Part shown: positions 16,283-57,419 of the stretch, one piece after another
How positions within the stretch are numbered: the stretch's first letter is position 1
Layout: every line of letters starts with the position of its first letter
Assembly (NCBI GenBank): GCA_036279835.1
Contig: DASUII010000297.1
Coordinates: 1 to 62,975, forward strand
Direction: 5' to 3'
Origin: Pseudonocardiaceae bacterium
GTDB taxonomy: Bacteria; Actinomycetota; Actinomycetes; Mycobacteriales; Pseudonocardiaceae
DNA: 62,975 nt
The notes under the pieces: generated by a model
Told to the model about the DNA's origin: nothing
Database searches by the model: none
The model's input: only the letters and a program-made list of their open reading frames with translations
Translations under genes and position numbers: made by a program

Positions 16283-17329
16283 ATGCCCATGACAACTTCG
16301 GTCGAGACTTCTCATGCGGAAGGCTCGAAAGACGACGCTTGGCCAGCAAAGGCACTGTTGTGGGACCAACGTGAGCCGGTTGCCGGGATGAGGGTGCCGA
16401 CCTGCTCGTTGTTTCCCTCAGATTCTCCGAGACTGTCTGGCGAGGACGTGGAACATTCCCGTGCGCTCGCCGAGTCGGGAGCAACATTCCCGGCGATTAT
16501 TGTGAATCGCGTTACCATGTGCGTCATCGACGGGATGCACCGATTACGTGCGGCCGCACTTCGCGGCCAGCGTGATATCGACGTGCAGTTCTTTGACGGC
16601 GATGGACATGATGCATTCGTGCTCGCCGTCAAGGCGAACATCGCTCACGGGTTGCCGCTGTCGCTGGCCGACCGCACCGCCGCGGCGGCACGTATCATCA
16701 GTTCACACCCGCAATGGTCTAACCGGGTAATCGCATCAACGGTGGGTCTTTCTCCCAAGACGATAGGTGCGATACGTCGTCGTTCAACTGAGGACGATCC
16801 TCAGTTGAACGCCAGGATCGGTCGCGACGGGAGGATCCGTCCGCTCAACACAGCCGAAGGACGTAGGATCGCCGGCGAACTGATGGAGAACCGGCCGGAT
16901 GCTCCTCTTCGGGAGATTGCCCGCGCGGCTGGGATCTCCCTGGGAACTGCGCAGGATGTGCGTGAGCGACTTCGCCAGGGCAAGCATCCAATTCCCCGGA
17001 AGCGGCATCATGGGAAACGGCAACAAAGTCAACTGGGGGGCGACCAACCCGAAAGTCAGCAGAGTAGCGTGTTCGCCACGGGCACACCTATCAGCGTATC
17101 GATCCTGAACGACCTGAAAAAAGATCCTTCGCTGCGTTTTTCTCATGCGGGACGCGCGCTGCTTCGCCTGCTGCACGTCCTCGCCCTTGGTAGAAGCGAT
17201 TGGGAACAGTTGATCGACAGCGTTCCGGTGCACTGCGTGCCCATGGTTTCCCAAGCGGCCCGCGCCTGTGCGGCCGCGTGGCAGGAATTCGCAGAACACC
17301 TTGACGGACATGCTCGGCGTAAGGGGTGA
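16283..17329 (+). CDS. StrR-like pathway regulator (ParB-like nuclease domain + HTH)
   Basis: SLFPSDSPRLSGEDVEHSRALAES...IIVNRVTMCVIDGMHRLRAAALRG matches the StrR/KasT/NovG-type N-terminus. The start may instead be the internal ATG at 16388. It contains an in-frame TTA codon at 16544-16546. Confidence 0.85.
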   Translation: MPMTTSVETSHAEGSKDDAWPAKALLWDQREPVAGMRVPTCSLFPSDSPRLSGEDVEHSRALAESGATFPAIIVNRVTMCVIDGMHRLRAAALRGQRDIDVQFFDGDGHDAFVLAVKANIAHGLPLSLADRTAAAARIISSHPQWSNRVIASTVGLSPKTIGAIRRRSTEDDPQLNARIGRDGRIRPLNTAEGRRIAGELMENRPDAPLREIARAAGISLGTAQDVRERLRQGKHPIPRKRHHGKRQQSQLGGDQPESQQSSVFATGTPISVSILNDLKKDPSLRFSHAGRALLRLLHVLALGRSDWEQLIDSVPVHCVPMVSQAARACAAAWQEFAEHLDGHARRKG

Positions 17330-17335
17330 GATGAT

Positions 17336-17920
17336 GTGCGTGCTGTGAGGGATGGCGCGACAGGTGGGACCGAACTCCGCAGCGCTACGTTCCGCGTCGT
17401 GATGGGTTTCTTTCCTACCGGTGTCGCGCTGCTCACGTGTGGATCCGGCGGTGATACCGACGTCATCACCGCAAACGCGGTTACTTCGATCTCGTTGGAA
17501 CCTCCGCTAGTCCTCGTCGCGGTAACCTCCCGGGGTCGGATTCGGCGCAGTATCGAGAGGCAGAGGAGTTTCGCGGTCAACTTCCTGGCGGAGGATCAGG
17601 GCGGGTTGGCTAGTTTGTTCAGCAAATGGAACCGTCCCAGGGGCGTCGCGGCCATTAAGATCCTCGGTGGCGAGGTAAGTCGCACTGGTGATGCCCTTCT
17701 CGCGAGGGCGGTCGCAGGCCTGGAGTGCACGTTGGTGCGGAAGTGCCCGGGCGGCGACCACATCATGTTTATTGGGCAGGTGATCGCTACCTACACCGAC
17801 GACGAGATAGAACGGCGGCCGCTGCTGTTCCACCGAGGTAGGTATTCGACTGTCGCCTCGTGCGGCTGCGGCATACCCGTTACCGGCTTAGTGCAGAGCC
17901 TGCCAGAGCGTGTCGACTAG
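17336..17920 (+). CDS. NAD(P)H:flavin oxidoreductase (flavin reductase family)
   Basis: 194 aa. FRVVMGFFPTGVALLT...ANAVTSISLEPPLVLVAV...FAVNFLAEDQ is typical of the flavin reductase domain. Confidence 0.85.
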   Translation: MRAVRDGATGGTELRSATFRVVMGFFPTGVALLTCGSGGDTDVITANAVTSISLEPPLVLVAVTSRGRIRRSIERQRSFAVNFLAEDQGGLASLFSKWNRPRGVAAIKILGGEVSRTGDALLARAVAGLECTLVRKCPGGDHIMFIGQVIATYTDDEIERRPLLFHRGRYSTVASCGCGIPVTGLVQSLPERVD

Positions 17921-17952
17921 GGATTCATCTGACTGGGATCGGAGACACGGCC

Positions 17953-27327: not shown

Positions 27328-28304
27328 GCCGCGTCCTCCTCACTGCTGGCGTCGCCCTCGACCTTGTGCCCGGTCAGGGCCAGGAAGACCTCGTCAAGGC
27401 TAGGTTGGCCGAGCGCGAACTCGCTGGTCTCAAGGCCCAGTTGGGACAGCACGCCCAGCGCACGGGTGGCCCGATCGGTGTCGGAGACCCGCGCTGACAG
27501 TGCGACCGGATCGGACTCCAGATGCACCGGCACACCGAGCTCGTGGGCGAGGACCCGCTCAGCTTCGGGCCGTTTCTCGGGATCACGCAGCCGGACGCTC
27601 AACACGCCCGAGCCGATCGACGACTTCAGCTCTCCGGTAGTCCCCTCCGCGATGACCGTTCCGTGCTCGATGACCGCGATGCGGTCGGCAAGCTGATCGG
27701 CCTCGTCGAGGTACTGGGTGGTCAACAGCACGGTGGTGCCCGTTTCGACGAGTGCCCTGACGATCCCCCAGACCTGGTTGCGGCTGTTCGGGTCAAGGCC
27801 GGTGGTCGGCTCGTCGAGGAACAGCAGTTCGGGTGTGACGACGATGCTCGCGGCGATGTCCAACCGGCGGCGCATGCCACCGGAGAACGTCTTCACCAGC
27901 CGATGCCCGGCTTCAGCCAGGCCGAAAGTGCCGAGCAGCTCGCTCGCCCGGTCCTTCGCCTGCCGCCACGAGTATCCCTGTAACCTGCCCATCATGATCA
28001 GGTTCTCCACCCCGGACAGCCCCTCATCGACTGAGGCGAACTGCCCAGTGAGGCTGATCCGGCGCCGAACCGCGTCGGCCTCGCGCACCACGTCGTGACC
28101 GTAGACGCAGGCGGTGCCGCCGTCCGGGCGTAACAGCGTGGCCAGCATGCGGATGATCGTGGTCTTGCCGGCGCCGTTCGGGCCGAGGACGCCATAGACC
28201 ACACCCGCCGGCACGGCAAGGTCGACGCCGTCCACCGCTTTCGTCGTGCCGAAGGCCTTGACCAAGCTCGACGTCTCTATCGCCAAAGTGGGGTGCGACT
28301 TCAC
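27324..28304 (-). CDS. ABC transporter ATP-binding protein, daunorubicin-resistance DrrA family
   Basis: Walker [10 protein letters not shown], signature FSGGMRRRL and Walker [13 protein letters not shown] are present, with the DrrA-type C-terminal extension. Confidence 0.9.
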
Positions 28305-28455
28305 AACCAGCTCCTAGCTATGTCCACCGAGTCAGTACGGCGCGGTCGCCTTCCTTCACAGCGGACCACGGTATCTCCGATTCAGGTCAGTTCCTGGCCG
28401 CGATTGCGGCGACGTTGTCTCTTTGGCGGGAACGAGCTGCCGCGCCCACCGCGTC

Positions 28456-31154: not shown

Positions 31155-31330
31155 GGTTCCTAGGATGCCCTCAACCGCGGTCAGAACTTGACCTAATTGA
31201 GGCTAGCGTCCCAGGACCAGTGATCAAGGTCGTGCGGAGAACCCAGGATGAGGCCGCCCCAAGTCGGGCTCAAGCCAAAGCCATGATGCTCGCATTTGCC
31301 CTTCCCCCCGGAAACACCGAGAGGTCAACG

Positions 31331-33770: not shown

Positions 33771-34110
33771 ATCCGCACACTACCGTCGAATGCGGCCGTT
33801 CGCGGGCCAGCTGCATACCGCGCCTGCCGTCCGCAGTCGCAGCACGGTCGAGCTCCAGGTAGCCGAACTCGTGCCTACTGCGGCCAAGATCTGGCCGCAA
33901 GGTCCGCTAGCGTAGGCGTCATGACGAGGTAAGGTACCGTGCCAACGAGGTGCACTGACCAACGGCTGGAGCAGGACGAGCGCGCCGGTCGTTCGAGCCG
34001 TCTTCAACTCAGGCTGGGTCCAACGGCGATGGGGTGGTCCAGTCGAGGGTCGCCCGGCAGTGATGTCATCCGCACAGATTCCAGACCATTCAGCCACCCG
34101 GGGAACAATC

Positions 34111-38987: not shown

Positions 38988-39920
<933 letters not shown>

Positions 39921-43508: not shown

Positions 43509-44554
43509 GGTACTTGCCCACTCACGTCACCCCACGACGGGCGTTCGAGCATTTCGACGACCGCGCACGACCAGCTGAACCCGGACCCCACGCTCGCCAG
43601 CAGGCACAGGTCTCCTCGACCGAGCACGCCTGCAGTGACCAGGTGGTCGAATCCGGCGATCGGATCGCCAGCACCGAGGTGACCGACGCACCGGCTCCAC
43701 GACCACGTCGTGATGTCCGGGTCGATGCCGAACCGGGTGAGGAAGCAGGCCTCTAGCCGCCGCCATCCCATGTGTGGCAACGCGATCCGGTCAATGTCGC
43801 CGAGCTCGACCCTAGCCGCGGCCAGCGCGCCGGCCAGCGCGGCCTTCTGCCCGGCGGCGATCCGCGCCGTGCTGAAGGAGCGTCCAGCCTCGGCGACGTA
43901 CTCCCGCTTACACCACTCGAGGTCCACCGTCGGCTGGTCGACGAGAGTCGGCTTCCCGAACGGGTCCCCTCCACGGTGCATCCCTTCCAACTCGGGATCG
44001 GAGATCGTCACCAGGCTGCGTAACCTGGCGAAGCCCGCGTGGCGCGACACGACGATCGCAGTGCCCCCGTCGGCGTAGACGGTTCCCGGATCGCTGCGCC
44101 ACCGGTCGAAACCTGGCGGGCTCATCCGGTCTCCCGTACTGATCAGCGCCGCGGACCGCTCCGCCGATGTGGCTAGGTAGCCACGGGCCAGCTCGATGGC
44201 GGCCATGGCGCCGTTGGAAACCTGCCGGACCTCCATCGCCGGGCACTGGTTGCGCACGGCGACACGTTGGACGTACGACGCGGGCGCCCATAGGTGATGG
44301 CCCTGGAAATACAGGCTCGCGTGCAGGACGAGATCGATGTCCGGCGGGCCACAGCCCGCGCGGTCCAGCGCGACGCGGGCGGCACGAGCGGCCATTTCCG
44401 GGGCGGACTCCTTGTCGGCGACCGCGACGGACAGCATTGCCGTCGTGGCGGCCAGCCTCTCGTCGCAGTCCCCTGCCGCCAGGGCCTGCGCGGTTGTCAC
44501 CGCCGGTGGTAGCCAGGTGCCGCAGCCCGCCAGGTACAGGTCACCGTTCATCAA
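43505..44554 (-). CDS. KSIII (FabH)-like starter-unit enzyme with Ser in the nucleophile position (DpsC-like, propionyl starter)
   Basis: 349 aa. The region equivalent to the FabH Cys reads [18 protein letters not shown], with Ser-Asn-Gly in place of Cys-Ser-Gly. It lies between the CLF and the AT. Confidence 0.82.
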
Positions 44555-45759
44555 GCCCTCCGCACGATCATCGCGCTGTTGAAACCGCCGAAGCCGCGCG
44601 CCAGTACCAGCGCGGCGTGCCCGGTGGTCGGCCGGGGCTCGGCGAGGACGAGGTCGATGGCGAAGTCCGGAACCACTTCGGACACGTTCGCGGTGGCGGG
44701 GATGACGCCCTCATGAAGTGCGACCATCGCGGTGACCACATCGAGGGGACCGGCGCCGGAGCAGAGCCGTCCTGTCAGCGTCTTCGGCGCCGTCACCGGT
44801 ACTGCGTGGGGACCGAACACCGCTTCCAGTGCGGCCGCCTCGGCGGCGTCGAGTTCAGGCACCGCGGCAGCATCAGCGAAGACCACCGCCACCTCGGACG
44901 CGTCAAGGCCGGCATCGGCGAGTGCCGCTTCGATCGCGCGACACAGGTTCGAGCCCCGACCGGAATCCGGTGGTGGGTCGAAGCTCGCCCCGTAGCCCGC
45001 GATCTCCCCGTATACCCGGACGTCACGTCGCCTTGCCCGGACGACGTTCTCCAGCGTCACGATGGCCCCGCCTGCGCCTGGTACGTGCCCGCAGGCCCGA
45101 AGGTCGAACGGCAGATACGCGGTGGTGGGGTCGTCGCCACGGCTCAGCCGGCCGGAAGAGACCTGCGCGGCAATCCCGTACGGGCACAGCGATGAGTCGA
45201 CCGCGCCGGTGACCATCATCGTGGCGCCGGCGGTGACCTTGCGTCGGGCGTGGGCGATTGCGTCGAGGCCACCGGCCTGCTCCGCGACCATGACACCGAC
45301 CGGTCCCCGCAGGTCGTGACGGATGGCGATCTGACCGGAGTTGACCGCGTAGAACCAGGCAAAGGACATGTATGCGCTGACGTAGTCGGGGCCCTTGCCC
45401 CACAAGTTCTGAAGCTCTCGCTGGCCGAAGTTGAAGCCGCCGCACGAACCCGCCGTCACCACGCCCACGCTGAGCGGGAACGCGGAGTCGTCGGCCGCCG
45501 CATCCCGGATCGCCCAGTCGGCGGCGGCAAGTGCGTACCGGGTCATCGGGTCGGTTTGGGGAAGGAGGCGGCTCGGCAGGTGGTCCTTGGCCACAAAATC
45601 GGTGACCTCACCGGCCAGCCGGGACGGGAACGCACTCGCGTCGAAGCGCTCGATGGGCCCGATCCCGGTCCTCCGATGCAGCACGGCATCCCAGTAGCGC
45701 TGAAGTCCCAGCCCGTTCGGAGCGACAACCCCGACGCCCGTGACCACGGTGGCAGTCAT
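44551..45759 (-). CDS. Type II PKS chain length factor (KSbeta)
   Basis: 402 aa. The active-site position carries Gln ([10 protein letters not shown]). It is coupled to the KSalpha gene. Confidence 0.92.
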
Positions 45760-45766
45760 GGCGCAA

Positions 45767-47026
45767 TCACCGATCGAATCGGCCGAGGAGCATGGCGCTC
45801 TGGAAACCGCCGAAGCCGCTGCCTACGGTGAGGGCCATGGCGACCGGATGTTCGCGTGCGGTCAATGGCACGTAATCCAGGTCGAGCTCAGGGTCTGGCT
45901 GGTAAAGGTTTGCCGTCGGCGGTATGACACCGTGCTCGATGGTCAGGGCACTGGCCGCCACCTCGATCGACCCCACCGCACCCAGGGAGTGACCGATCAT
46001 CGACTTGATCGAGCTAATCGGCACCCGGTAGGCGTGCTGACCGAGCGCACGCTTTAACGCCGCGGTCTCGTGCCGGTCGTTTTGTTTCGTAGCCGTGCCG
46101 TGGGCGCTGACGTAGTCGACCGCCGATGCGGCACACCGCGCTTCGTCGAGTGCAGCGATGATAGCTGCCGCCATCTCGGCACCGTCAGCGCGCAGGCCGG
46201 TCATGTGGTAGGCGTTGCTTCGCGACGCGTACCCGCCGATCTCGGCGTAGATGTGCGCGCCACGCTTGCGAGCGACCTCGGCCTCCTCGAGGATCAGGAT
46301 GGCGGCGCCCTCCCCCAACACGAAACCATTACGAGTGCGGTCGAACGGGCGGGACGCGCTGGCGGGTTCGTCGTTGTGATCGGAGGTTGCCTTGATCGCG
46401 TCGAAGCACGCGACGGTGATCGGGGCGATAGGCGCGTCCACGCCTCCGGTGATCATCACGTCGGCCGCTCCCTCGCGGATGAGCTCGCAGGCGTAGCCGA
46501 CCGAGTCGATCCCCGATGTGCACCCCGCCGAAACGACGCACGTCGGCCCCTCGGCGCCGACCAGCCAAGCCAGCTCGGCGGCCATTGAACTCGGGACGAA
46601 ATAGTCGTAGAGGTAGGGCGTCGCGCGGGTGTGATCGACCAGCCAGCTCATCCCGCCGCCGCTGACCGCGACGTACTCAGTTTCCAACTTCTGCGTGCAG
46701 CCGACCGCGCTGCCGAGACTTACGCCCACTCGTGGCGCTGACCGCTCGTCGATTTCCAGACCGCTGTCCTCGACGGCTTCACGACCGGCGACCACGGCGA
46801 ACTGGGCGGCCCGGTCCAGGCGTTCCCGGTCGGTTACGGATAGGCCGGCCAGCTCAGGATCGAAGTCGCACTCAGCCGCTATTCGGGAGCGAAAAGCTGA
46901 CGGGTCGAACGCGCTGATCGCGCGGGTCGCCGTGCGTCCGGACACGAGGAACTCCCAAAAGGCTTTGGTCCCGATTCCGCCGGGGGCTATCACGCCGAGG
47001 CCGGTGATCACGACGCGGCGGGTCAT
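45767..47026 (-). CDS. Type II PKS ketosynthase alpha
   Basis: 419 aa with the VVSAGCTSGIDSVGYA active-site Cys and downstream H..H motifs (SAHGTAT, IGHSLGA). Confidence 0.95.
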   Translation of the reverse strand: MTRRVVITGLGVIAPGGIGTKAFWEFLVSGRTATRAISAFDPSAFRSRIAAECDFDPELAGLSVTDRERLDRAAQFAVVAGREAVEDSGLEIDERSAPRVGVSLGSAVGCTQKLETEYVAVSGGGMSWLVDHTRATPYLYDYFVPSSMAAELAWLVGAEGPTCVVSAGCTSGIDSVGYACELIREGAADVMITGGVDAPIAPITVACFDAIKATSDHNDEPASASRPFDRTRNGFVLGEGAAILILEEAEVARKRGAHIYAEIGGYASRSNAYHMTGLRADGAEMAAAIIAALDEARCAASAVDYVSAHGTATKQNDRHETAALKRALGQHAYRVPISSIKSMIGHSLGAVGSIEVAASALTIEHGVIPPTANLYQPDPELDLDYVPLTAREHPVAMALTVGSGFGGFQSAMLLGRFDR

Positions 47027-47397
47027 CGTGCCCTCTTCGACGAGGCGGACCAGGTGGTGGGCTCGGGTGCGGTGCGCAGCTGGCGAGTCAGGTACAGGTT
47101 CGGTTCACTGGTGCTTAGCACGCGCAACGCGGCGGTATGCGGCGTGAAGTCCGGATGGCCGATCGCCACCCGGAACGACGCGGTGTCCCGCCACCAGGCG
47201 ATGTTGAGATAATGGTGTTCGTTGCCCTCGTCGGCATGGCGTAGCAGCATGTGACCGAGGAAGCCGGGCTGGCGTCCCATGAACGCCGACGTGGCGGTGA
47301 ACGCCTGCTCGAACTGGCCGCATGACCCGTGCACCGCGAACCTGTTGACGAACGTGACCGCTCTGTCGCCGACGGCATCGAATGGTGGGACGGGCAT
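47023..47397 (-). CDS. ABM-fold anthrone monooxygenase (DnrG/AknX-like)
   Basis: About 124 aa. FVNRFAVHGSCGQFEQAF...YLNIAWWRD..SF is the ferredoxin-like ABM pattern. AAGGAG precedes the TTG/ATG starts at 47400/47397. There is an ATGA overlap with the KSalpha start. Confidence 0.8.
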   Translation of the reverse strand: MPVPPFDAVGDRAVTFVNRFAVHGSCGQFEQAFTATSAFMGRQPGFLGHMLLRHADEGNEHHYLNIAWWRDTASFRVAIGHPDFTPHTAALRVLSTSEPNLYLTRQLRTAPEPTTWSASSKRAR

Positions 47398-47521: not shown

Positions 47522-48307
47522 ATGTCCCCCCAAGCCCGCGCGGTCGCCCTCGTCACCGGAGGAACAAGCGGTATCGGTCTCGCGGTGGTGCGTTCCCTCG
47601 GTGGGAGCGGGGCGCGCGTGTTGCTGTGTGCACGCAACGAAGACAACGTCACCCTGACCGTCAAGCAGCTACGCGAGGCCGGTATGGATGTCGATGGCCG
47701 GACATGCGATGTGCGAAACCCGGGCGCCGTCGCCGACCTGGTGGCTGCCACTCGTGACCGCTTCGGCCCGATTGACATCCTGGTCAACAACGCCGGCCGT
47801 GGCGGTGGCGGCGTCACCGCGAAGATTTCCGACGAACTCTGGCTCGATGTCATTGAAACCAATCTGAACAGCGTCTTCCGGGTGACGAGAGCTGTGCTCA
47901 CCACCGGAGGCATGCTGGAGCAGGAATGCGGCCGGATCATCAATATCGCCTCGACTGGCGGAAAGCAGGGCGTCGCGCTCGGTGCACCGTATTCCGCGTC
48001 CAAACATGGGGTCGTCGGGTTCACCAAGGCGCTCGGCCTGGAACTGGCGAAAACCGGGATCACCGTGAACGCCGTCTGTCCCGGTTACGTAGAAACGCCG
48101 ATGGCGCAGGGCGTTCGGCAGCGCTACGCCGACCTCTGGGGTGTCACCGAGGAAGACGTGCGCGAACGGTTCAACGCGAAGATCCCGCTCGGCCGCTACT
48201 CCACCCCCGAAGAAGTGGCGGGCATCGTCGGCTATCTGGTGTCCGACACTGCCGCGTCGATCACCGCCCAGGCCATCAACGTTTGCGGCGGTCTCGGTAA
48301 CTACTGA
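47522..48307 (+). CDS. Polyketide C-9 ketoreductase (SDR; DpsE/ActIII-like)
   Basis: ALVTGGTSGIGLAVV, NNAGRGGGG and YSASKHGVVGF are present. The ATG is preceded by GGGAGAA. Confidence 0.9.
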   Translation: MSPQARAVALVTGGTSGIGLAVVRSLGGSGARVLLCARNEDNVTLTVKQLREAGMDVDGRTCDVRNPGAVADLVAATRDRFGPIDILVNNAGRGGGGVTAKISDELWLDVIETNLNSVFRVTRAVLTTGGMLEQECGRIINIASTGGKQGVALGAPYSASKHGVVGFTKALGLELAKTGITVNAVCPGYVETPMAQGVRQRYADLWGVTEEDVRERFNAKIPLGRYSTPEEVAGIVGYLVSDTAASITAQAINVCGGLGNY

Positions 48308-48327
48308 AGCCTGCCGGAGGGATGCAC

Positions 48328-49326
48328 ATGTCGGAGTCAGCTATCCGAAAGACCGAGCACGAGATCGTCATCTCGGCCCTGCCTCCGGCCGTGTTCAGGC
48401 TGCTCGTCGACGTGGGCAACTGGCCGACCGTCTTTCCCCCCACGGTCCATGTCGAGCACCTCGAACGCGGCGACACCGAGGAACGCTTCCGGATCTGGGC
48501 GACGGCCAACGGTAAGGCGCGCGGCTGGACCTCCCGGCGCGAGCTCGACCATGACGAGCTGAGGATCCGGTTCCGCCAGGAGGCGCCCGCGCATCCCGTA
48601 GCGGCGATGGGCGGCGAGTGGATCGTCGAGGAACTCGCCGGCGGGCGCAGCCGAGTGCGGCTGCGGCACGACTTCCGGGCGGTCGAGGACACCCCGGAGG
48701 CAATCGCCTGGATCCACCAAGCTGTCGATCGCAACAGCGAAACCGAGCTTTGCGCGCTGCGCACCGCCGCGGAACGCGGCGAAGGGGACCAGCGGCTGTT
48801 CACTTTCACCGACACCATCCTGGTGGACGGTGCTGCCGCCGACAGCTACGAGTTCCTTTACCGAGCAAAGGAGTGGGAGCAGCGGCTGGCGCATGTCGAC
48901 CGGGTATCGGTAGATGAGGAGATCCCCAACCTGCAGCTGCTAGAAATGGACACCCGCGCGGCGGACGGCTCGACGCATACCACCGTTTCGGTGCGGGTCT
49001 GCTTCCCTGAGCACCTGATCGTCTACAAGCAGCTGCGCACGCCTGCGTTGCTGTCCCTGCACACTGGGCAATGGACGATCCGGAGCGACGGCGACGCAAC
49101 CGTGGTCACCGCACAGCACACGGTGGCGATCGCCTCAGAGGCGGTCGCCGGCGTCCTCGGCGAGCAAGCGACCGTCGAAGACGCCCGCGAGTTCGTTCGC
49201 TCCACGTTGAGCTGCAACAGCCTCGTCACACTGGACGCAGCCAAAACCTACGCGCAACGCCACTGCGTCAACCGTCAGGTCACGGAAAGGGCGCCGTCGA
49301 GGGCGAAGACCGCGCCGCTCGCGTAG
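48328..49326 (+). CDS. Didomain aromatase/cyclase (SRPBCC; DpsF/AknE1-like)
   Basis: It has two START/Bet v1-like halves ([30 protein letters not shown].. and ..[23 protein letters not shown]..). The alternative start is at 48322. Confidence 0.88.
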
Positions 49327-50021
49327 GCGGCTTCCGGTGAGGTGAGCTGGATGATCCACCACGCAATCTCGGCCGGCTCGCCGATCCGGCCGACGGGCAC
49401 CTGCGCGCGCATCCCATCGAGGAACTGCGTGTAGTCCTGCTGGGGCATCCCCGCTCGTACTCCCGCACCAGTGTTGATCACGCCGGGTGCCACGCCCACC
49501 ACACGGATCCCCCGTGGTCCCAGCTCAACCGCCCACGACCGGGTCAGGAGATCCAGGGCAGCTTTGGTCGCGCCATACACCGCGTTTCCCGACCAGGAGC
49601 GCAGGCCGAGCGCGCCTGCCGAGCCGACATTGACGATAACGCCCGAAGCGGCTTGCAGCGCGCCGAGCACGGCTTGGGTCACCAGGATCGGCGCGACGAG
49701 GTTCGTCGCGACCTGTGCTTCCACGAGTTCCCGGTCGAGCTGACCGAGCGCCCCGAAACCACCCGTGGCGGCGTTGTTCACCAGGACATCGACTCGACCC
49801 AGCTCACGATGCGCAGTCTCGGCGATCACGCTCGGGGCATCGGGATCGGTGATGTCAACCGCGAAGGGGTGAATCCTGTCGTAGCCCGTAGCCGTGACCT
49901 TGAGCGCGGAGTGGGTGCGCCCGAGGATGAGAACACTATCGCCCTGCTCGGCGAAGGCCTGTGCGGTCGCACGACCGATGCCCGAGCCACCCCCGGTGAC
50001 GATCACCGCTCGACGAGTCAT
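49275..50021 (-). CDS. SDR family oxidoreductase (aklaviketone reductase DnrE/AknU-like candidate)
   Basis: 248 aa with [11 protein letters not shown] and YGATKAALD. There is an ATGA-type overlap with the downstream GT. The functional assignment rests on cluster context only. Confidence 0.7.
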
Positions 50022-51322
50022 GACCGCGACGCCAAGTCACGCCCGACGCGGTGCTCGGCGGTCAGTTTCTCGAGTACCGGCACGATGTCGTTTGGACTTG
50101 GAGTTCCCACGATCTCGGTACGGACCCGCGCCGCCCCGACCGCGAAGGACGGATCGTCGAGTATCGAGACGATGTGGTCTCTCAACCCTTCCACCGACAA
50201 CTCCTCGGGATCATTGACGAAAGCCCCGGCTCCGCAGTCGGCCAGTGCGAGCGACTTCTCCATCGAGTCCCACATCATGTCCGGCACAATCAACTGCGGC
50301 ACCCCGTGGGACAGCGCGGTCATAAACGTTCCGGATCCGCCGTGGTGGACGATGGCATCGCAGCTGGGGAGCAGGGCGTTCAACGGCACGAAGTCCACTG
50401 CGCGGACATTAGGCGGCAGCTTCCCCAATCGAACCAGCAGATCGGCTGGCAGGGTGGCAACGACCTCGACATCGAGGCCGTCCACAGCCGCTATCACATC
50501 CCGGGCGGCGACCGTACCGCCATCAGGCGCCTCGCCCAGCGACACCCCGAGCGTAAGGCACAGGCGCCGGGGGTACGGTGCCAGCTCCCGGAGCCAGCCC
50601 GGTAGAGCGGAGCGACCGTTGTAGGGCACGTAGCGGACCGGAACGTAATGCAAGTCCAGCGGCGCGCGCATGGAGGTCGGAGTCGGGTCGATGGTCCACT
50701 GCCCGACCACCATCTCTTCGTCGATCTCAGCCGCCGATCCGCCGTTGCGCTCGAGCGTCCAGGCCAGCCACTCGGTCAACGGGTCGTCGTGCCGCCCCGC
50801 CGGCTGCTGGGCGAGCAGGCCTCGGAACGCCGCCCGGTTCCTCGCTACCTGATCTGGACCGAATAGCAGCCGGGCATGTGCGGCGCCGGAGATCCGCGCC
50901 GCGACGGGCGCGCCCAACGTCAACGGGTCCCAGACGATGAGGTCCGGTTTCCAGCCGACCGCCAGCTCCACCAGCTCGTCCACCATCGGTTCCGGGCACA
51001 CGTTCTGGAACACGAACGACGTCATCGCCGTGAACATGCCCAGCGCCTTCTCCCAGGTGAAAGGATCGTGCCGGGTGTTGCTCATGGCCAGGCCGCCAAG
51101 GTTACGATCGTTGAAGCTCTCGTTGGCCTGTTGCGTCTCGGGCTCGAGATTGAGCACGGGACCGACCCTGGCCGCGGGCAGACCCGCGGCCACGATGTCG
51201 TCGGTCAGATCCGGTTGGCTGGCGACGATGACTTCGTGACCGGCGGTCCGCAGCGCGGAGGCCACGGTAACCTGGGCGAAAAAATGGGAGCGTGCTGCGA
51301 ATGTGGTGAACATGACTCGCAT
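50018..51322 (-). CDS. GT1 family glycosyltransferase (second sugar transferase, DnrH-like candidate)
   Basis: 434 aa. [37 protein letters not shown] and the HHGGSGTF motif are present. Confidence 0.88.
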
Positions 51323-51328
51323 GGGAGC

Positions 51329-52156
51329 TCATTTCCGGACGCTGGCCATCAGCAATGCCGCCGTGTCACTCTTGGAAGCCGATTCTTGGGCCACGGCCAT
51401 CACATACTGGCCGTACTCGGACTTGGCGAGTCGTGTGCCAAGGCGATGGCACGCCTCGGCAGTGATGAAGCCCATCCTCATTGCCACCTCCTCCAGGCAG
51501 GCGATCCGGACGCCTTGGCGCTCTTCGAGGGCGTGAACGTACTGGCTCGTCCGCATGAGTGACTCCGGTGTCGCGGCGTCGAGTATCTCGAAGCCGCGCC
51601 CGAGCTCCACCAGCCGGGTTCGGCCGCGGTCGGAGTAGGCGCGGTTCAACTCGGCGATATCCCTTTCGCCCCGTTCGGCGAACACCAGCTCCTTGGCCAG
51701 GTCGACCACGTCGCTGTGGTAGAAGTACAGGCCGGTGATCGCGCGAGTCGACCAGCGGAACAGCACGCAGCCGGGCACGTGCTGGGCGTGGAGTTCGAGC
51801 AGGTCCCTGAGTCGGTGGCCGTGGAAGATGTTGTCACCAAGAATGACAGCGACGTTCTCACCGCCGATGTGGTCCGCTCCGATGATGAAGGTATCGACCG
51901 GGCTGCCGGGACGATCCTGTCCGGCGTAGTCGATGGCCAGCCCTAGCTGGGAGCCGTCACCGAGTAGCCGCCGGATCTGAGACAGGTCAGCCGGATCTGC
52001 GATGACCAGGATGTTGCGGATCCCGGCCAGCATGAGCACCGATAGCGGGTAGTAGATCAGTGGTTTGCCGCCGACCGGTACGAGCTGCTGGGGAACCGCG
52101 AGGGTGATCGGGTGCAGGCGTACGTTCGCGCCGTCCGCCAAGATGATGCCCTTCAC
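51329..52156 (-). CDS. Degenerate glucose-1-phosphate thymidylyltransferase (RmlA/DnmL-like) with substituted catalytic motifs and an internal deletion
   Basis: A GTG at 52156 forms a GTGA overlap with the upstream gene. GIILADGANVRLHPIT stands against canonical GIILAGGSGTRLYPIT. PQQLVP stands against SKQLLP and ILDAAT against WLDTGT. About 30 residues are missing between GCVLFRW and ITGLYFY. Confidence 0.75.
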   Translation of the reverse strand: MKGIILADGANVRLHPITLAVPQQLVPVGGKPLIYYPLSVLMLAGIRNILVIADPADLSQIRRLLGDGSQLGLAIDYAGQDRPGSPVDTFIIGADHIGGENVAVILGDNIFHGHRLRDLLELHAQHVPGCVLFRWSTRAITGLYFYHSDVVDLAKELVFAERGERDIAELNRAYSDRGRTRLVELGRGFEILDAATPESLMRTSQYVHALEERQGVRIACLEEVAMRMGFITAEACHRLGTRLAKSEYGQYVMAVAQESASKSDTAALLMASVRK

Positions 52157-53637
52157 GGGATTTCCCGCGATGCGGAGCCTGCTCCCGCCGACAGGCTGTG
52201 CAGACACGCCACCAGGCTGCGAGCCTGGACATTGAGGTAGTGGCTGTGTCGCAAGAGGTCGACAAGCTGGTGCAGGGTCATCCACCGATATTCGGATCCT
52301 CCAGCGAGATCCACGTCAACCTCGACGATGAGGTACCGGTTGACGGCGTTGAAGAAACGGCCGCCCTCCTCGGAGAGATCCGCCGCGAAGCGGATCTGGT
52401 GAGGCGCAGCTTCCAAGACAGTGTCGAGGAAACGCGGCCTGCTGCCCGGGGGCAACACCCGCAGGCTCTCCGGCGTGCATTGTACGGTGGGCGCGATTTC
52501 GACGACGTCGACATAACCGGGCTCGGCGCGGGCGTGCACAAGCGCATGCAACACACCCTCAATCCGCCGGACCAGGAACGCGACGATTCCGGTTCCCTTC
52601 GGTTCGATCATCGGCTGGGTCCAACTGGCGACCTCGCGCGATCCGCCGACCACGTCCACGCCGATGACGTCGAAGAACAGGCCGCTCTCATGGGATATCG
52701 TCCCGTGCACCCAATGCCAGTCCGGCAACTGCGCGAGCGGAACTCCGCAGGTGCGCACCTCAGCCTCTGCCCGGACTCCGGTGATCCAGCTCAAGATCTC
52801 GTAGGTCGGATGAAGGCTGCCCGCCGCCGCACTGCAGGACCGAACCACTGCATCGTGGAAGGTTGTCTCGCCGGCGAACGCACCGTCGAAGAACGGGAGC
52901 AGGTTTGCACCCGCGAAGGGAAGGCAGGACAGCACGGTCCGCGCGTCCATGTTGATCAAATTCTCGACCGTGAGCAGCCGGTGCAGCTGTCCAATGGTGA
53001 GCCAGTGAAAGTCCTCCCACGCCGCGACGTCCCGGTCAATCTCGACGATCATGTTCCGATTGCGTTTCTGGTAGAACCACGCGCCCTGCTCCGACTGCAG
53101 CACGTCCGCGACGACCAAATGCCCCTCAGGATGGCGGAAGTACTCCAGGTAGGGCACGGCCTTGCCTTGGTGGACCCTCGTGTAGTTGCTCCGCGTCGCC
53201 TGCACTGTTGGCGACAGCTGCAGGCCGTTGCAGTTGCCGGGTTCAAACTTCGCCTGCATCAGGCAGTGCAGCACTCCGTCGAACTCCTTCATCAGGATGC
53301 CGAGAATGCCAACTTCGGGTTGATTGACGATCGGCTGGCCCCATTTCGGGACTGGGGCATCCGGAATCCGCACGTCGAGGCCTTCTATAGCGAAGAATTT
53401 CCCACTGTGATGCGTGATGTTCCCGGTGCTGGGATCTCGGCTCCAGCCGACCAGTTCCTCGAGGCGCAATCGCTCGACCCGGTGCGTAGTGTGTTCCGCG
53501 CGGCCGGCGAACCAGTCCCAGAACCGTGCCATCCCGTCCCCGAGCCCGTCTGTGGCGAGAGCAGATTTGGCGATCCGGGGCGGCAGCCGGGTGTCCGGCT
53601 GCGATAGGATCGGTGGCGTAGTCAGGGAAGCAGCCAT
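52153..53637 (-). CDS. NDP-hexose 2,3-dehydratase (DnmT/TylX3/EvaA-like)
   Basis: About 494 aa with internally duplicated halves (HHSGKFFAIEGL...QAKFEPGN and HESGLFFDVIGV...HARAEPGY), typical of the 2,3-dehydratase family. Confidence 0.88.
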   Translation of the reverse strand: MAASLTTPPILSQPDTRLPPRIAKSALATDGLGDGMARFWDWFAGRAEHTTHRVERLRLEELVGWSRDPSTGNITHHSGKFFAIEGLDVRIPDAPVPKWGQPIVNQPEVGILGILMKEFDGVLHCLMQAKFEPGNCNGLQLSPTVQATRSNYTRVHQGKAVPYLEYFRHPEGHLVVADVLQSEQGAWFYQKRNRNMIVEIDRDVAAWEDFHWLTIGQLHRLLTVENLINMDARTVLSCLPFAGANLLPFFDGAFAGETTFHDAVVRSCSAAAGSLHPTYEILSWITGVRAEAEVRTCGVPLAQLPDWHWVHGTISHESGLFFDVIGVDVVGGSREVASWTQPMIEPKGTGIVAFLVRRIEGVLHALVHARAEPGYVDVVEIAPTVQCTPESLRVLPPGSRPRFLDTVLEAAPHQIRFAADLSEEGGRFFNAVNRYLIVEVDVDLAGGSEYRWMTLHQLVDLLRHSHYLNVQARSLVACLHSLSAGAGSASREIP

Positions 53638-53639
53638 CC

Positions 53640-54080
53640 TCAGTCCATCCCATCCCGGGTGACTCGCCGATGCCGGACCAGCCACGCCGTCCCGGAATGC
53701 ACGAGGGTGTCCGCACAAACCGTGCTGCGGCGTACGACGACGTCGCCGCCCGGGGGGGTTTCAAGCACGAGGGCATAACATCGGGTCGCGACGGTCTCAG
53801 TGGCGGTTTCGACGGTAAGCATCCCGATCCAGTGCCGCCGGGTGATCCCCGCCTCCGCGAATTCGTCCGCGACGGCACGCGCAGCCAGCGCGATGTTCTC
53901 GGCACCGGATACCGACTTGGCGCCGACCTCGAAAATGGCGTCCTCAGTGAACATGCCAGCCCATTCCAGGGTGCGGCCGGCGTCCAGTAGCTGCATCTGC
54001 CGCGTGTAAAACTGCTGAACCTCGGAGTAGAGGTTCGGATCGGTCGAAGGCGAACCGACACTCATCAGAACATCCACCAT
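53640..54080 (-). CDS. NTF2-like (SnoaL_4 / ActVI-ORFA / DpsH-like) protein
   Basis: 146 aa from the ATG at 54080. YSEVQQFYTRQMQLLDAGRTLEWAGMFTEDAIFEV...RRHWIGMLTV is an NTF2-fold pattern. It is divergent from the ACP gene. Confidence 0.6.
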   Translation of the reverse strand: MVDVLMSVGSPSTDPNLYSEVQQFYTRQMQLLDAGRTLEWAGMFTEDAIFEVGAKSVSGAENIALAARAVADEFAEAGITRRHWIGMLTVETATETVATRCYALVLETPPGGDVVVRRSTVCADTLVHSGTAWLVRHRRVTRDGMD

Positions 54081-54242: not shown

Positions 54243-54497
54243 ATGGCCAAGTTCAGCCTGGATGAACTGAAGCAGATCATGCGGCAATGTGCCGGCGAGG
54301 ACGAGTCGGCCGACCTGGACAACGACTTCGAAGCCGTCACCTTCGACCATCTCGGCTACGACTCGCTCGCCATCCTCGAGACGGCGGGCCGGATAGAACG
54401 AACCTATGGGCTCAAGCTGCCAGAGGAAGGACTATCCGAGATCACGACTCCCGGTGCGCTCGTCGCGTTCGTCAACCGCGTGCGGGAAAAAGTGTGA
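54243..54497 (+). CDS. Type II PKS acyl carrier protein
   Basis: 84 aa and acidic, with the [10 protein letters not shown] phosphopantetheine attachment Ser. Confidence 0.9.
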
Positions 54498-55366
54498 TGG
54501 CCGGGGCCAACAGCGCGCCGAGCCTGAGCGGCCGCACGATCGTTGTGACCGGCGCGACCTCCGGCATCGGCCGGGCAGCCGCTATAGGGCTGGCCCGGTT
54601 GGGTGCCGGGCTGGTCATCGTCGGCAGGGACACCACCCGGCTCGAATCGGTCACGCAAGAGATCGCCGCGGTGGGCCAGTCGGCCCCGACCGCGTTCCAG
54701 GCCGACTTCACTCATCTCGATCGAGTGCGGGAACTCGGGGAAAAGCTGCGCTGCAGGTACGAGCGGATTGATGTTCTCGCCAGCAATGCGGGCGCCATAT
54801 TCTGGAGACGGATCATTACCGCGGACGGGTTCGAGGCCACGATCCAGGTCAATCATCTCGCCGGGTTCCTGCTCGCCAACCTGCTCCGTGGCCGACTCGA
54901 CGGCGGACGGCTGATCATAACCTCGTCCGACTCATATACCGAAGGCAAGTCGGACCCCGAGGACCTCAACAGCGACCGAATCCGCTATGGGGCGGGCCGT
55001 GCTTACAGCACGTCGAAACAGGCCAACATCCTCGTCGCTCGCGAAGCCGCCAGGCGGTGGCCGGACGTCCTGCCGGTCAGCTATCACCCGGGCCAGGTGC
55101 GCACCCGGATCGGTCGAGGGACCTTCGCCGCGCCCTATTTCCGGCTCAACCCTTTCCTGCGTAGCGCGGCGAAAGGCGCAGACACCCTGGTGTGGTTGGC
55201 GACCGCGCCGGCCACGGACCTGGTGCCCGGCGGCTACTACGCCGACCGCGGGTTACGTGAACTCAGTGGACCGACCGCTGCCCCCGAGATTGCCTCCCGG
55301 CTGTGGGACTCCAGCATCGCTGCCCTGGGGCAGGGCATCGAACACAGTGAAGGGAAACGACAGTGA
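54497..55366 (+). CDS. SDR family oxidoreductase (DnrU-like ketoreductase candidate)
   Basis: 289 aa with [13 protein letters not shown] and YSTSKQANI. The start overlaps the ACP stop (TGATG). Confidence 0.78.
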
Positions 55367-56187
55367 TCAGTTACCCCCCCGGCACCCCGGCGTGGTTCGA
55401 TCTCGGTTCGCCGGACGTGGCAGCCTCCGCTCGCTTCTACAGCGATCTGTTCGGCTGGACCGCGAGCGTGGTCAGCGACCCAGGAGCTGAGGGCTACACC
55501 ACCTTTATGCGCGATGGTCAGCTGGCCGCCGCCGTCGCCCGTCACCAGATCGACACGCCGTACCACCGGCCGTACGGCCCGGACCAGCAGGAGGGCATGC
55601 CCGCCATCTGGACGGTCTACTTCGCGACTGACGACGCGGACGCGCTGACTCAACGCGCCGTGGCGGCGGGCGGCGAAATCATCATGTTGCCGATGGATGT
55701 GCTCAACCTCGGCCGGATGGCAGTCTTCGCCGACCCGGAGGGAGCCGCCTGCGCGGTCTGGCAGAGCATCTCCATGGACGGCGCCGAGGTGATCGGGCAG
55801 CCGCGCTCGATGAACTGGGTCGAGCTGGTCACCCGGGACATCGAGGGGGCGAGGGCATTCTACGGGCAAGTTCTTGGCATGGCGGCCAAAGACTTCTCGT
55901 GCGCGGGGTTGACCGACCCGATCTGGCAGATCGGCGGGCAGCCCGTCGCGGGAACCAGAGAGCTGGGCACGACACATGCGGTACGACCGCACTGGGCACT
56001 CACTTTCGGCGTCGAAGATTGTGACGCGATGGCGCGGCGTGCAGTGGAACTCGGTGGCACCACCGATAATCCCCCCGCAGATACCCCGCTCGGGCGTCGC
56101 GCCGACCTGATCGATCCCCACGGCGCCGGTTTCTCGGTGCTTGCCAAGGCTCCAGATTTCCCTGGTTCGAGCGGATCGTCGTCATGA
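55363..56187 (+). CDS. Two-domain VOC (glyoxalase/bleomycin-resistance fold) protein (DnrV-like)
   Basis: It has two repeats of the VOC module ([24 protein letters not shown].. and [24 protein letters not shown]..). It is translationally coupled to the P450 gene. Confidence 0.8.
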
Positions 56188-57419
56188 GCGGAGCACCTCG
56201 TGTCGGGGCCGATCCGTTCACTTGCCCCGCACAATCCATTCAGCGCAAACCGGAAGTGCACGATGCGCTCCGGAGAGGCGGCCCGATCGTCGAGGCCAAC
56301 GCGCCAGCCGGCGGCCCGGTCTGGGTCATCACCGAGGGTTCGCTGGCCAGGCAGGTGCTCGCCGACCCACGCTTTGTGAAGGATCCGGAACTGGCACCCG
56401 CCTCCTGGCACGGTGTCGAGGACGGGCTGGACTTCCCGACGCCCGAACTACGCCCTTTCACACTCATCACCGTCGACGGTGAAGAGCACCGAAAACTGCG
56501 CCGGATTCATGGGCCCGCCTTCACTCCGCGCCGGCTTGGCGTGTCTTCGGAGCGGATCGCGGGAATCGCCCGCGATCTGTTCGCTGAGCTCGCGCAATCC
56601 TCCGGACAGGCCGGCGAACCCGCCGAGCTGATCGGCGGATTTGCCTACCACTTCCCGCTGCTCGTCATCTGCGACCTGCTGGGCGTCCCGGTCACCGATC
56701 CCGTCATGGCCCGAACCGCGATCAGCAGTCTCAAGGCGATCGCGCTAGGCACCGCGGGCGATCAGGAGCCCGACCCCTCGGCGCTGGAAAAGCTGCTTAT
56801 GCAGACCGTGCAGACTGCCCGTGAGGGTGGGCAAGACTCCATGACCCGCGTGCTCTACGAGCGCGTGTGCGCCGAGTTCGGCGATGTCCCGGATGAATAT
56901 CTGATCTACATGATCACCGGGCTGATCTTCGCTGGGCACGATACGACCGGATCCTTCCTCGGCTTCCTGCTGGCGCACGTCCTAGCGGGTCACCTCGACC
57001 CGGACGCGGACACGGATGCCATGACCGACTTCATCGAGGAAACTCTGCGCCTACATCCCCCGGTGCCCTACACGTTGTGGCGGTTCGCCGCGACCGACCT
57101 GGAGATCGCGGGTGTTTCGCTGTTGCGAGGGGCGCCCGTGCTGATCGACATCGAGGGCATCAACACCGACAGCCGCTGCCACAACGAGCCGCACACGCTG
57201 CGCCTGGATCGCGATCTCAGCCTACGGCTGACCTTCGGTGGTGGTCCCCATTACTGCATCGGCGAACAACTTGCCCTGCTCGAATCGAGGGCCATGATCC
57301 AGGTACTGCGCAGCGAGTTACCGGCTGCGCGGCTCGCTGTGCCGTTCGAGGAGCTCCGGTGGGGACGGAAAGGCTCGCAGACGGCCCGCCTCACCGAGCT
57401 GCCCGCCTGGCTCCGGTAG
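56184..57419 (+). CDS. doxA: Cytochrome P450, DoxA-like anthracycline C-13/C-14 oxidase
   Basis: 411 aa with the heme loop [14 protein letters not shown]. Long stretches (KPEVHDA.., [69 protein letters not shown]) match my recollection of S. peucetius DoxA. It follows a DnrV-like gene. Confidence 0.85.

Follow-up and report, generated by a model that had tools for sequence, protein, structure and literature searches.

The stretch of DNA analyzed here, the 62,975-nt contig DASUII010000297.1 of a Pseudonocardiaceae bacterium (hereafter the window), has a guanine-plus-cytosine (GC) content of ∼65% and carries, between positions 16283 and 57419, 39 contiguous genes, none of them interrupted; every candidate open reading frame (ORF) of this segment was scanned against Pfam. 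Judged by its sequence, the segment is very probably the dnr/dau (daunorubicin-doxorubicin-baumycin) type II polyketide cluster in an intact, orthologous form, carried by an uncultured soil actinomycete. It represents a known pathway rather than a new one, and its departures from the textbook Streptomyces version lie mainly in the regulators. An earlier note on this DNA had read the segment as a complete daunorubicin/baumycin-type cluster, and comparison with Streptomyces peucetius DNA and with solved dnr enzymes upheld that reading.

The Pfam scans recovered all of the domains and gene types that had been listed for the segment. In the polyketide synthase (PKS) part these were KSalpha, chain-length factor (CLF), KSIII, acyltransferase, ABM, ketoreductase, aromatase/cyclase, PF04199 cyclase, and SnoaL cyclase genes. 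Tailoring functions are represented by two small-molecule methyltransferases, an NDP-hexose C-methyltransferase, an alpha/beta esterase, an FAD aromatic hydroxylase, a VOC protein followed by a P450, and two EryCIII-type glycosyltransferases with a P450-like helper, while the sugar genes encode an NTP-transferase, a 4,6-dehydratase, a 2,3-dehydratase, a DegT aminotransferase, a 3,5-epimerase, and a 4-ketoreductase. The remainder comprises an acyl-CoA-dehydrogenase-like protein, DrrA/DrrB, a UvrA-like protein, a SARP, a flavin reductase, a BBE oxidase, a WYL regulator, and a carboxyltransferase. The acyl carrier protein (ACP) call and most start codons were taken from gene calls on independent contigs encoding identical proteins. 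Active-site motifs are intact in KSalpha (Cys169/His309), CLF (Gln), ACP (DSL), DoxA (heme Cys), DnrP (GxSxG), DpsD (GHSxG), and the BBE oxidase (His/Cys pair).

The CP022438 region of S. peucetius ATCC 27952 (L055; L numbers denote comparison loci) and a Logan contig whose DpsC is exactly that of S. peucetius (L056) served as S. peucetius references, and a Streptomyces contig (L067) as the reference for DnrP, DnrQ, DnrS, and DrrC. Identity to S. peucetius covers 26 genes and ranges from 52 to 81%; identity to other Streptomyces clusters ranges from 55 to 82%. The window holds counterparts for 36 of the 37 genes that we take to make up the S. peucetius dnr/dps/dnm/drr set, and all six of the local gene orders that had been likened to that species are present. 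Among contigs representing one genome per species in GTDB, the nearest loci belong to two metagenome-assembled genomes (MAGs) labelled Pseudonocardiaceae bacterium (BBE 88%, genes 79–92%), namely JBOHGX010000136 of ‘Pseudonocardiaceae bacterium SC-B1_metabat2.bin.10’ (L010 and L057) and SC-M_metawrap_bin.9 (L009). In this comparison, the names given to the two MAGs are what places the host near Pseudonocardiaceae. Next, at ∼55–82%, come Streptomyces (S. ruber, S. prasinopilosus, CA-179760, and NPDC047886), an assembly labelled S. kasugaensis, Nonomuraea rhodomycinica, and a Nocardia assembly.

The minimal type II PKS is complete, with intact active sites and 60–78% identity to the S. peucetius-type locus L056. 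It consists of KSalpha DpsA (45767–47026, − strand; Ketoacyl-synt domains with Cys169/His309; 78%), the CLF DpsB (44551–45759, −; Ketoacyl-synt domains in which Gln replaces Cys; 70%), and the 84-aa ACP DpsG (54243–54497, +; PP-binding domain on identical gene calls from independent contigs; DSL; 60%). Directly after the CLF gene lies the propionate starter pair, formed by the propionyl-starter KSIII DpsC (43505–44551, −; 72% to S. peucetius P0304, which has the UniRef name ‘Daunorubicin-doxorubicin polyketide synthase’ and occupies the dpsC position) and the acyltransferase DpsD (42426–43508, −; PF00698; 65% to L056), and the order dnrG-dpsA-B-C-D is that of S. peucetius. All enzymes leading to epsilon-rhodomycinone were found, at 52–81% identity to S. 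peucetius: the C-9 ketoreductase DpsE (47522–48307, +; adh_short; 74% to L056), the aromatase/cyclase DpsF (48328–49326, +; Polyketide_cyc; 61% to L056), the cyclase DpsY (22902–23681, +; PF04199; 76%), the ABM anthrone oxygenase DnrG (47023–47397, −; 52% to L056), the aklanonic acid methyltransferase DnrC (41683–42543, +; methyltransferase domains; 66% to L056), the aklanonic acid methyl ester cyclase DnrD (41012–41449, −; SnoaL; 81% to L056), the aklaviketone reductase DnrE (49275–50021, −; SDR; 68% to L056), and the aklavinone 11-hydroxylase DnrF (28559–30160, +; FAD_binding_3 and Rng_hyd_C; 69%). A SnoaL_4 protein in the dpsH position (53640–54080, −; PF13577) is 60% identical to its positional counterpart in L056.

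The late-step genes are all present as well. They encode the 15-methylesterase DnrP (38988–39911, −; 405 bits to PDB RdmC; GxSxG; 74% to L067), the carminomycin 4-O-methyltransferase DnrK (39921–41015, −; 71% to other Streptomyces), and the P450 DoxA (56184–57419, +; 636 bits to PDB DoxA as compared to 138 bits for the next P450; heme Cys; 68–73% to Streptomyces) with the VOC protein DnrV (55363–56187, +; two Glyoxalase domains; 68–72% to Streptomyces). The order dnrU-dnrV-doxA is conserved, the first of these genes encoding the 13-ketoreductase DnrU (54497–55366, +; SDR; 72–74% to Streptomyces orthologues). DnrK aligned without gaps to PDB DnrK at 561–563 bits, as compared to 372 bits for the 10-hydroxylase RdmB, and the top-scoring solved structures (DnrK, DoxA, DnmZ, RdmC) are dnr enzymes or the nearest relative of one for which a structure exists. 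Genes of the baumycin branch were found for the second glycosyltransferase DnrH (50018–51322, −; EryCIII-like domains; 74% to L056), the NDP-hexose C-methyltransferase DnrX (23697–24908, +; Methyltransf_13/14; 75% to S. peucetius), and the nitrososynthase-type flavin monooxygenase DnmZ (21496–22716, −; 571 bits to PDB DnmZ 4zxv and 477 bits to the ORF36 nitrososynthase; 68% to S. peucetius). The resistance genes drrA, drrB, drrC, and drrD are likewise complete in number. Of these, the first three encode the ATPase DrrA (27324–28304, −; ABC_tran, with DrrA1-3_C sub-threshold at 22.2 bits against a 27.4-bit cut-off; 73% to S. peucetius), the ABC-2 permease DrrB (26500–27327, −; PF01061; 74% to S. 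peucetius), and the UvrA-like resistance protein DrrC (34111–36399, +; UvrA TIGR00630 at 789 bits; 79% to the Streptomyces orthologue in L067).

The TDP-L-daunosamine genes and the glycosyltransferase pair were compared in the same way (DnmT/J/U/V 63–81%, DnrS 73%, DnrQ 58%). They encode the 2,3-dehydratase DnmT (52153–53637, −; PF03559, E 9e-158; 63% to L056), the aminotransferase DnmJ (18780–19892, +; DegT_DnrJ_EryC1, E 3e-106; 77–81% to Streptomyces and 92% to a MAG), the 3,5-epimerase DnmU (20874–21509, −; PF00908; 78% to S. peucetius), the 4-ketoreductase DnmV (19906–20877, −; Epimerase/RmlD domains; 71% to S. peucetius over a partial alignment), the glycosyltransferase DnrS (DnmS; 36384–37655, −; EryCIII-like N and C domains; 73% to L067), and its P450-like helper DnrQ (DnmQ; 37679–38977, −; 58% to L067), which gave a weak p450 match and, on the motif check, no heme-Cys motif. 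As judged by sequence, two genes that are not orthologous to dnmL and dnmM stand in for them, each predicted to have the function of the gene it replaces. In place of DnmL there is a short RmlA-type glucose-1-phosphate thymidylyltransferase of 275 aa (51329–52156, −; TIGR01207 rmlA at 283 bits, below the 360.65-bit cut-off), which shares only ∼35% over 113 aa with the 355-aa S. peucetius DnmL; its gene lies between dnmT and dnrH and its product is 83% identical to that of the MAG gene at the same place. The DnmM function falls to a dTDP-glucose 4,6-dehydratase (32766–33761, −; TIGR01181 at 407 bits, above cut-off; 45–48% to Streptomyces/Nonomuraea dnmM). This gene is intact in the window, whereas CP022438 lacks a gene call at the dnmM position; a frameshift in the S. 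peucetius dnmM is documented in the literature. The suggestion that the sugar decoration may differ finds no basis in these genes. S. peucetius has the same sugar and baumycin set (DnmT/J/U/V/Z, DnrX, DnrH, DnrS/Q), the two replacements being like-for-like in predicted function, and because the gene sets match, no different sugar is predicted.

Five gene types embedded in the segment had been regarded as foreign to dnr clusters. Three of them (the StrR-like regulator, the flavin reductase, and the carboxyltransferase) are true additions. The other two, the BBE oxidase and the WYL regulator, belong to the canonical dnr set, as orthologues in S. peucetius positions. By sequence, the BBE oxidase (24924–26480, −) is DrrD (a.k.a. 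DnrW, DauW), an AknOx-type FAD oxidase with 65% identity to an intact S. peucetius-type protein and 579 bits to PDB AknOx. It carries FAD_binding_4 and BBE domains with GGHC and GRCPGIGVGGH motifs, whose His and Cys we take, from AknOx, to be the bicovalent FAD tether. S. peucetius has an FAD_binding_4 and BBE gene at the same drrB-BBE-dnrX position, split into 420 and 153 aa in the ATCC 27952 assembly (L055 14737–16381) and intact, with 523 aa, in another assembly (L054 14809–16380); in addition, a protein 64% identical to that of the window (P0011) heads a 90% cluster with S. coeruleorubidus and S. peucetius proteins. Published work places drrD directly downstream of drrAB (PMC11043234), and the window agrees. 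One review calls DrrD a transcriptional repressor (PMC11676270), whereas its domains are those of an AknOx-like BBE-family FAD oxidase.

The WYL regulator (30138–31154, −) is, on the same kind of evidence, DnrO. Its domains follow the order HTH_11, WYL, WCX, and it shares 71% identity over 340 aa with S. peucetius Q54822, a 340-aa ‘putative repressor’ of the same HTH_11+WYL+WCX composition (L055 10001–11023) whose gene is divergent from dnrN, a 202-aa Response_reg+GerE gene in CP022438. The two genes are described as sharing one bidirectional promoter (PMC12979805). Several papers label DnrO a TetR-family protein (PMC12979805, PMC6215055, PMC6534649), a label that does not fit its domain content, which by sequence is of the WYL/YafY type; a literature search on DnrO and WYL returned irrelevant matches only. 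The regulator trio DnrO/DnrN/DnrI is nevertheless incomplete, with DnrO (71%) and DnrI (∼72% to other Streptomyces) present and no tblastn match to S. peucetius DnrN in the 63-kb window at E≤1e-3. The earlier note had reported neither a DnrN- nor a DnrO-type regulator and was thus right about the former and wrong about the latter. The incomplete trio is an accessory matter, and the cluster stays in the dnr/dau family.

Alignment of the dnrO upstream regions of seven clusters yielded a conserved palindrome, GGYCA-N5-TGRCC, with extended arms of approximately AATCGC/GCGATT. The window contains three exact matches, where 0.5 would be expected and none of 100 shuffles reaches three, and all three lie in divergent promoter regions: GGTCAGTTCCTGGCC at 28385–28399 between drrA and dnrF, GGTCAGAACTTGACC at 31179–31193 between dnrO and the carboxyltransferase gene (25–39 nt upstream of dnrO), and GGCCAAGATCTGGCC at 33882–33896 between dnmM and drrC. 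A version of the box with N6 spacing was rejected, as its matches fall in coding DNA only; N5 is the correct spacing. The box recurs upstream of dnrO in nine related loci, in seven of them exactly (among these S. peucetius, Nocardia, two further Streptomyces loci, N. rhodomycinica, and MAG locus L010) and in two with one mismatch (S. ruber and NPDC047886). The MAGs and N. rhodomycinica carry a second box in the region between drrA and dnrF, where S. peucetius and three other Streptomyces have a one-mismatch form (box coordinates: L055 9963–9977 and 12735–12749; L066 9963–9977; L008 5027 and 7794; L010 5188 and 7961; L009 2536). The palindrome is probably a DnrO operator and is treated here as a candidate; DnrO is its likely binder because it is the only palindrome-type regulator common to these clusters.

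At the left end of the cluster, three genes read in the same direction with gaps of only 6 and 32 nt. The first (16289–17329, +) encodes a StrR/NovG-family regulator, as had been proposed, a call supported by an alignment with S. glaucescens StrR (55% identity over 305 aa) and by a PF27534 NovG_helical match on the identical gene in L060/L061. Local Pfam and NCBIfam scans of this ORF gave weak helix-turn-helix (HTH) or IS21 matches only, and the family was set by representative search, cluster names, and precomputed Pfam. The protein has 1080 homologues at E<1e-30, a close relative (P0413, 54%) shares a 90% cluster with S. glaucescens StrR, and the homology to StrR runs from the ParB-like N-terminal region through the central HTH to the NovG_helical domain. 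StrR-family activators are known from aminoglycoside, aminocoumarin, and glycopeptide clusters; to our knowledge, none has been described in a type II PKS anthracycline cluster. With the StrR/NovG operator consensus taken to be GTTCRACTG-N11-CRGTYGAAC, the window contains a single match, even when up to three mismatches are allowed: a candidate operator palindrome with no mismatches at 16782–16810 (GTTCAACTG-N11-CAGTTGAAC), which lies within the regulator ORF itself at codons 167–176 (RSTEDDPQLN). In S. glaucescens strR, a site with one to two mismatches occupies the homologous codons 164–173 (RSTEGLPQSN; L065 3491–3519), which suggests that an intragenic StrR-type operator is family-wide.

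The second of the three genes encodes an NAD(P)H-flavin reductase, termed fre here (17336–17920, +; PF01613, E 2.6e-34; NCBIfam HsaB/HpaC/StyB-type reductase subunits), which has a 34% homologue inside the N. rhodomycinica cluster. Nitrososynthases, the group to which ORF36 and DnmZ belong, need externally reduced flavin. The third is the orthologue of dnrI (17953–18945, +), encoding a SARP of 330 aa with BTAD and Trans_reg_C domains, 71–73% identical to Streptomyces/Nonomuraea proteins (66% in a longer alignment, L013) and 81–85% identical to those of the two MAGs. Its stop codon is lost: TCG stands at 18748–18750 where the 85%-identical MAG gene has TAG, so that the protein gains a 63-aa tail (18745–18945) and the gene overlaps dnmJ by 166 nt in another frame. 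Because the same 330-aa DnrI is called on three independent metagenome contigs, the extension is not a sequencing error. TCGAG (DnrI-type) motifs are about twice as dense in intergenic DNA as in the cluster overall, a difference too weak for use.

The third addition is an acyl-CoA carboxyltransferase beta subunit whose closest match is the AccD6 type (31331–32752, +; PF01039, E 1e-123); it scored 660 bits against M. tuberculosis AccD6 (PDB 4fb8/4l6w) as compared to 379 bits against S. coelicolor PccB. An 89% orthologue lies beside dnrO in MAG locus L010 (3562–5004). The slot between doxA and dnrO is occupied by dnrN in Nocardia (L066 9209–9817) and by the carboxyltransferase gene in the MAG, while in N. 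rhodomycinica the carboxyltransferase gene has a DnrN-like gene next to it on the same strand (L008 792–2914).

The exact KSalpha and BBE proteins of the window were matched on soil-metagenome contigs only. Contigs encoding identical proteins came from Logan (SRR22969580/81/83, SRR22391448, SRR25158402, and SRR21778114) and from the ENA ‘JX_farmland’ assembly ERZ1761205, and the same proteins appear in the same order on overlapping contigs of at least six other soil metagenome assemblies, the JX_farmland scaffold covering dnmU to dpsE and the SRR22969581 contig covering drrC to doxA. Because these independent contigs show the same gene order, the cluster is not the product of chimeric assembly, and its recurrence across metagenomes suggests a recurrent uncultured organism.

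Both flanks are non-biosynthetic, and 16283–57419 therefore delimits the cluster well. On the left are genes for GSDH, IlvD, GNAT, DUF2252, and amidohydrolase proteins, two Xre/ImmA-like and DUF6545 modules, and an LCM-type methyltransferase. The two modules are paralogous (10682–12354 and 13880–15573), each comprising a DUF6545 membrane protein gene and a small ImmA/Xre-like gene, with a 61-nt stretch that is 82% identical between them. The LCM-family (PF04072) methyltransferase gene sits between the two (12975–13847); TcmP is a member of the same family. Modules and methyltransferase probably stand outside the cluster. On the right, next to doxA, 57947–61465 holds an IS240/IS6-type DDE transposase fragment, a tyrosine integrase gene, and an HNH endonuclease gene. 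An independent 29.6-kb contig stops near the insertion sequence (IS) fragment, and no tRNA gene that might serve as an integration site near the integrase was found within the window.

Pathway and product are predicted here by orthology only. DpsC and DpsD would prime the DpsA/DpsB/DpsG PKS with propionate to give a decaketide, which DpsE, DpsF, DpsY, DnrG, DnrC, DnrD, DnrE, and DnrF would carry through aklanonic acid, aklaviketone, and aklavinone to epsilon-rhodomycinone. The thymidylyltransferase and the 4,6-dehydratase, with DnmT, DnmJ, DnmU, and DnmV, would furnish TDP-L-daunosamine, and daunosaminylation by DnrS/DnrQ would then lead to rhodomycin D. DnrP, DnrK, and DoxA with DnrV would yield daunorubicin and possibly doxorubicin, DnrH, DnrX, and DnmZ would open the branch to baumycins, and DnrU would give rise to 13-dihydro products. 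Self-resistance would consist of export by DrrAB and protection of DNA by DrrC, with DrrD as the oxidase of the resistance set. Of the additions, the flavin reductase probably supplies reduced flavin to DnmZ, and the AccD6-like subunit, joined to a housekeeping alpha subunit, probably boosts the supply of malonyl-CoA (or methylmalonyl-CoA) extender.

The main real difference from the textbook system, as predicted from the genes, is probably one of regulation, which is plausibly altered. In the textbook cascade, DnrO acts on DnrN, which in turn acts on DnrI. In the window, the StrR-like protein would probably activate fre-dnrI, perhaps together with dnmJ, in DnrN's stead. DnrO senses glycosylated products (PMC12979805, PMC7105598) and would gate the drrAB/dnrF, dnrO/carboxyltransferase, and dnmM/drrC promoters. 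Such rebuilt wiring, in which a StrR-family activator stands in for DnrN and, by way of an operator in its own gene, switches on fre-dnrI while DnrO acts directly via GGYCA-N5-TGRCC on drrAB, drrC, and the carboxyltransferase gene in the old dnrN slot, is put forward tentatively, as a model that we consider possible without claiming it to be probable.

Other accounts of the cluster as a whole appear less satisfactory. It might direct synthesis of a product other than daunorubicin/baumycin, either of the carminomycin/rubeomycin/barminomycin type as in Nonomuraea (Actinomadura) roseoviolacea or with a terminal sugar oxidized by the AknOx-like oxidase, and the nearest named relatives of several proteins are indeed from Nonomuraea, including N. 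rhodomycinica and N. roseoviolacea. A carboxyltransferase and a flavin reductase are encoded in the N. rhodomycinica cluster too (the sole Nonomuraea cluster examined), and the BBE oxidase has its closest match in the sugar oxidase AknOx; what this protein does in dnr clusters is described as unsettled (PMC11043234). However, the tailoring genes pair one to one with those of dnr and no additional tailoring enzyme is encoded, DnrK aligns gap-free with its namesake and scores far above RdmB, DoxA is a clear orthologue, and the BBE gene belongs equally to the S. peucetius cluster; we thus consider a different product improbable. We attach slightly less weight again to a silent or decaying cluster that is no longer properly activated, since all 39 ORFs are intact with their catalytic residues kept, a StrR-type regulator with a perfect candidate operator is placed to replace DnrN, and the identical proteins in several independent soil metagenomes suggest a maintained and fairly abundant lineage. 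Decay would nonetheless accommodate the absence of DnrN, the TAG-to-TCG change with its 63-aa extension into dnmJ, the IS fragment, integrase, and HNH genes adjoining doxA, and the inversion of gene blocks relative to the 88%-identical MAG. That the segment is an already characterized cluster or a chimeric assembly is scarcely credible, and nothing in its favor was found. The near-identity to a characterized cluster that had been envisaged was not found, the best genome matches being MAGs at 79–92% and cultured strains reaching 82% at most, and the junctions are spanned by overlapping contigs from other samples.

Several points do weigh against our reading of an intact dnr/dau orthologue with altered regulation. 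For DnrP, DnrQ, DnrS, DrrC, DnrU (partly covered in L056), DnrV, DnmJ, and DnrI, other Streptomyces clusters stand in for S. peucetius, and the structure comparisons of DnrK and DoxA were made with PDB entries of those names whose source organism the search leaves unstated. No biotin carboxylase or biotin carboxyl carrier protein partner for the carboxyltransferase is encoded in the window, and the partner must therefore come from elsewhere in the genome. The 63-aa tail could impair DnrI. The StrR operator is intragenic, lying 0.5–1.1 kb from the genes it would drive, and a scan for sigma-70-type promoters around it detected none and was uninformative. Finally, neither the strR-like gene nor the flavin reductase gene was found beyond dnrI in the closest MAG loci (∼3 kb of sequence in L010 and ∼2 kb in L009), and both may be recent, marginal additions. 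This last point leads to a further alternative, in which the two genes are mere neighbors and the true left edge of the cluster is dnrI. It would also fit the fall in GC content to 60% at 16–18 kb and the fact that the sole StrR box lies, as also in the streptomycin cluster, inside strR, so that it may serve autoregulation only. Yet the two genes are tightly spaced and co-directional with dnrI, a flavin reductase also occurs within the N. rhodomycinica cluster, a nitrososynthase-type enzyme needs a reductase, and StrR-family regulators are typically pathway-specific. We regard this alternative as unlikely, although of the four it deserves the most weight.

The overall picture of the pathway is unchanged by these findings. 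The dnr-type pathway extends beyond Streptomyces, with related clusters in Nonomuraea, Nocardia, and uncultured Pseudonocardiaceae-like soil bacteria. DoxA is described as a bottleneck in doxorubicin engineering (PMC12979805), and the 52–82%-identical variants of DoxA, DnrK, DnrS/Q, DnrH, and DnmZ might be tried there. The reference cluster itself is clarified, DnrO being by domain content of the WYL/YafY type and DrrD an AknOx-like oxidase. Moreover, testable hypotheses on how anthracycline production is coupled to self-resistance arise from the presence of a StrR-type regulator, from the lack of DnrN, and from the candidate DnrO boxes at the promoters of resistance genes; if the box is the DnrO operator, a direct link from DnrO to drrAB/dnrF would exist in S. 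peucetius also, and both the textbook cascade and the TetR label would be revised.

Set beside known systems, the additions resemble their relatives in build and differ from them in setting. The regulator shares with StrR (hydroxystreptomycin/streptomycin) and NovG (novobiocin) the ParB-like N-terminus, the HTH, the NovG_helical domain, and a palindromic candidate operator inside the regulator gene, whereas its setting is a type II PKS anthracycline cluster with a single StrR box. The carboxyltransferase has M. tuberculosis AccD6 as its best solved-structure match, full-length and of the same size (473 aa), but its gene lies inside a secondary-metabolite cluster, divergent from dnrO and with no alpha subunit nearby.

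Among whole clusters, that of N. rhodomycinica (JABWGO010000001, L008; uncharacterized) shares the carboxyltransferase (47%), the flavin reductase (34%), a WYL DnrO (79%), and DrrAB, DnrF, BBE, DnrX, DpsY, DnmZUV, DnmJ, and DnrI at 64–80%, as well as the second DnrO box between drrA and dnrF; it differs in gene order and in retaining a DnrN-like response regulator gene co-directional with that of the carboxyltransferase. The loci of the two MAGs, the closest relatives, resemble the window in the carboxyltransferase gene beside dnrO, in a short RmlA gene flanked by dnmT and dnrH, and in the DnrO boxes, whereas dnrI there retains its stop codon and the doxA-to-dnrQ block is inverted relative to the window, doxA adjoining the carboxyltransferase gene; a search for direct or inverted repeats at the rearrangement breakpoints that might explain the inversion gave nothing convincing. 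Relative to Streptomyces, where the order runs dnmM...dnrI|doxA...drrC, the cluster is circularly permuted, so that dnrI and doxA mark its opposite ends and dnmM adjoins drrC. In comparison with S. peucetius in particular, the window differs in its GC content of ∼65%, lacks dnrN, has an AccD6-type carboxyltransferase gene divergent from dnrO where S. peucetius has dnrN, and has a StrR-type regulator and a flavin reductase gene upstream of dnrI. The same candidate DnrO box stands upstream of dnrO in both, however, and two long gene orders, dnrO-dnrF-drrA-drrB-drrD-dnrX-dpsY-dnmZ-dnmU-dnmV and dpsG-dpsH-dnmT-dnrH-dnrE-dpsF-dpsE-dnrG-dpsABCD-dnrC-dnrD, are identical in the window and in S. peucetius.

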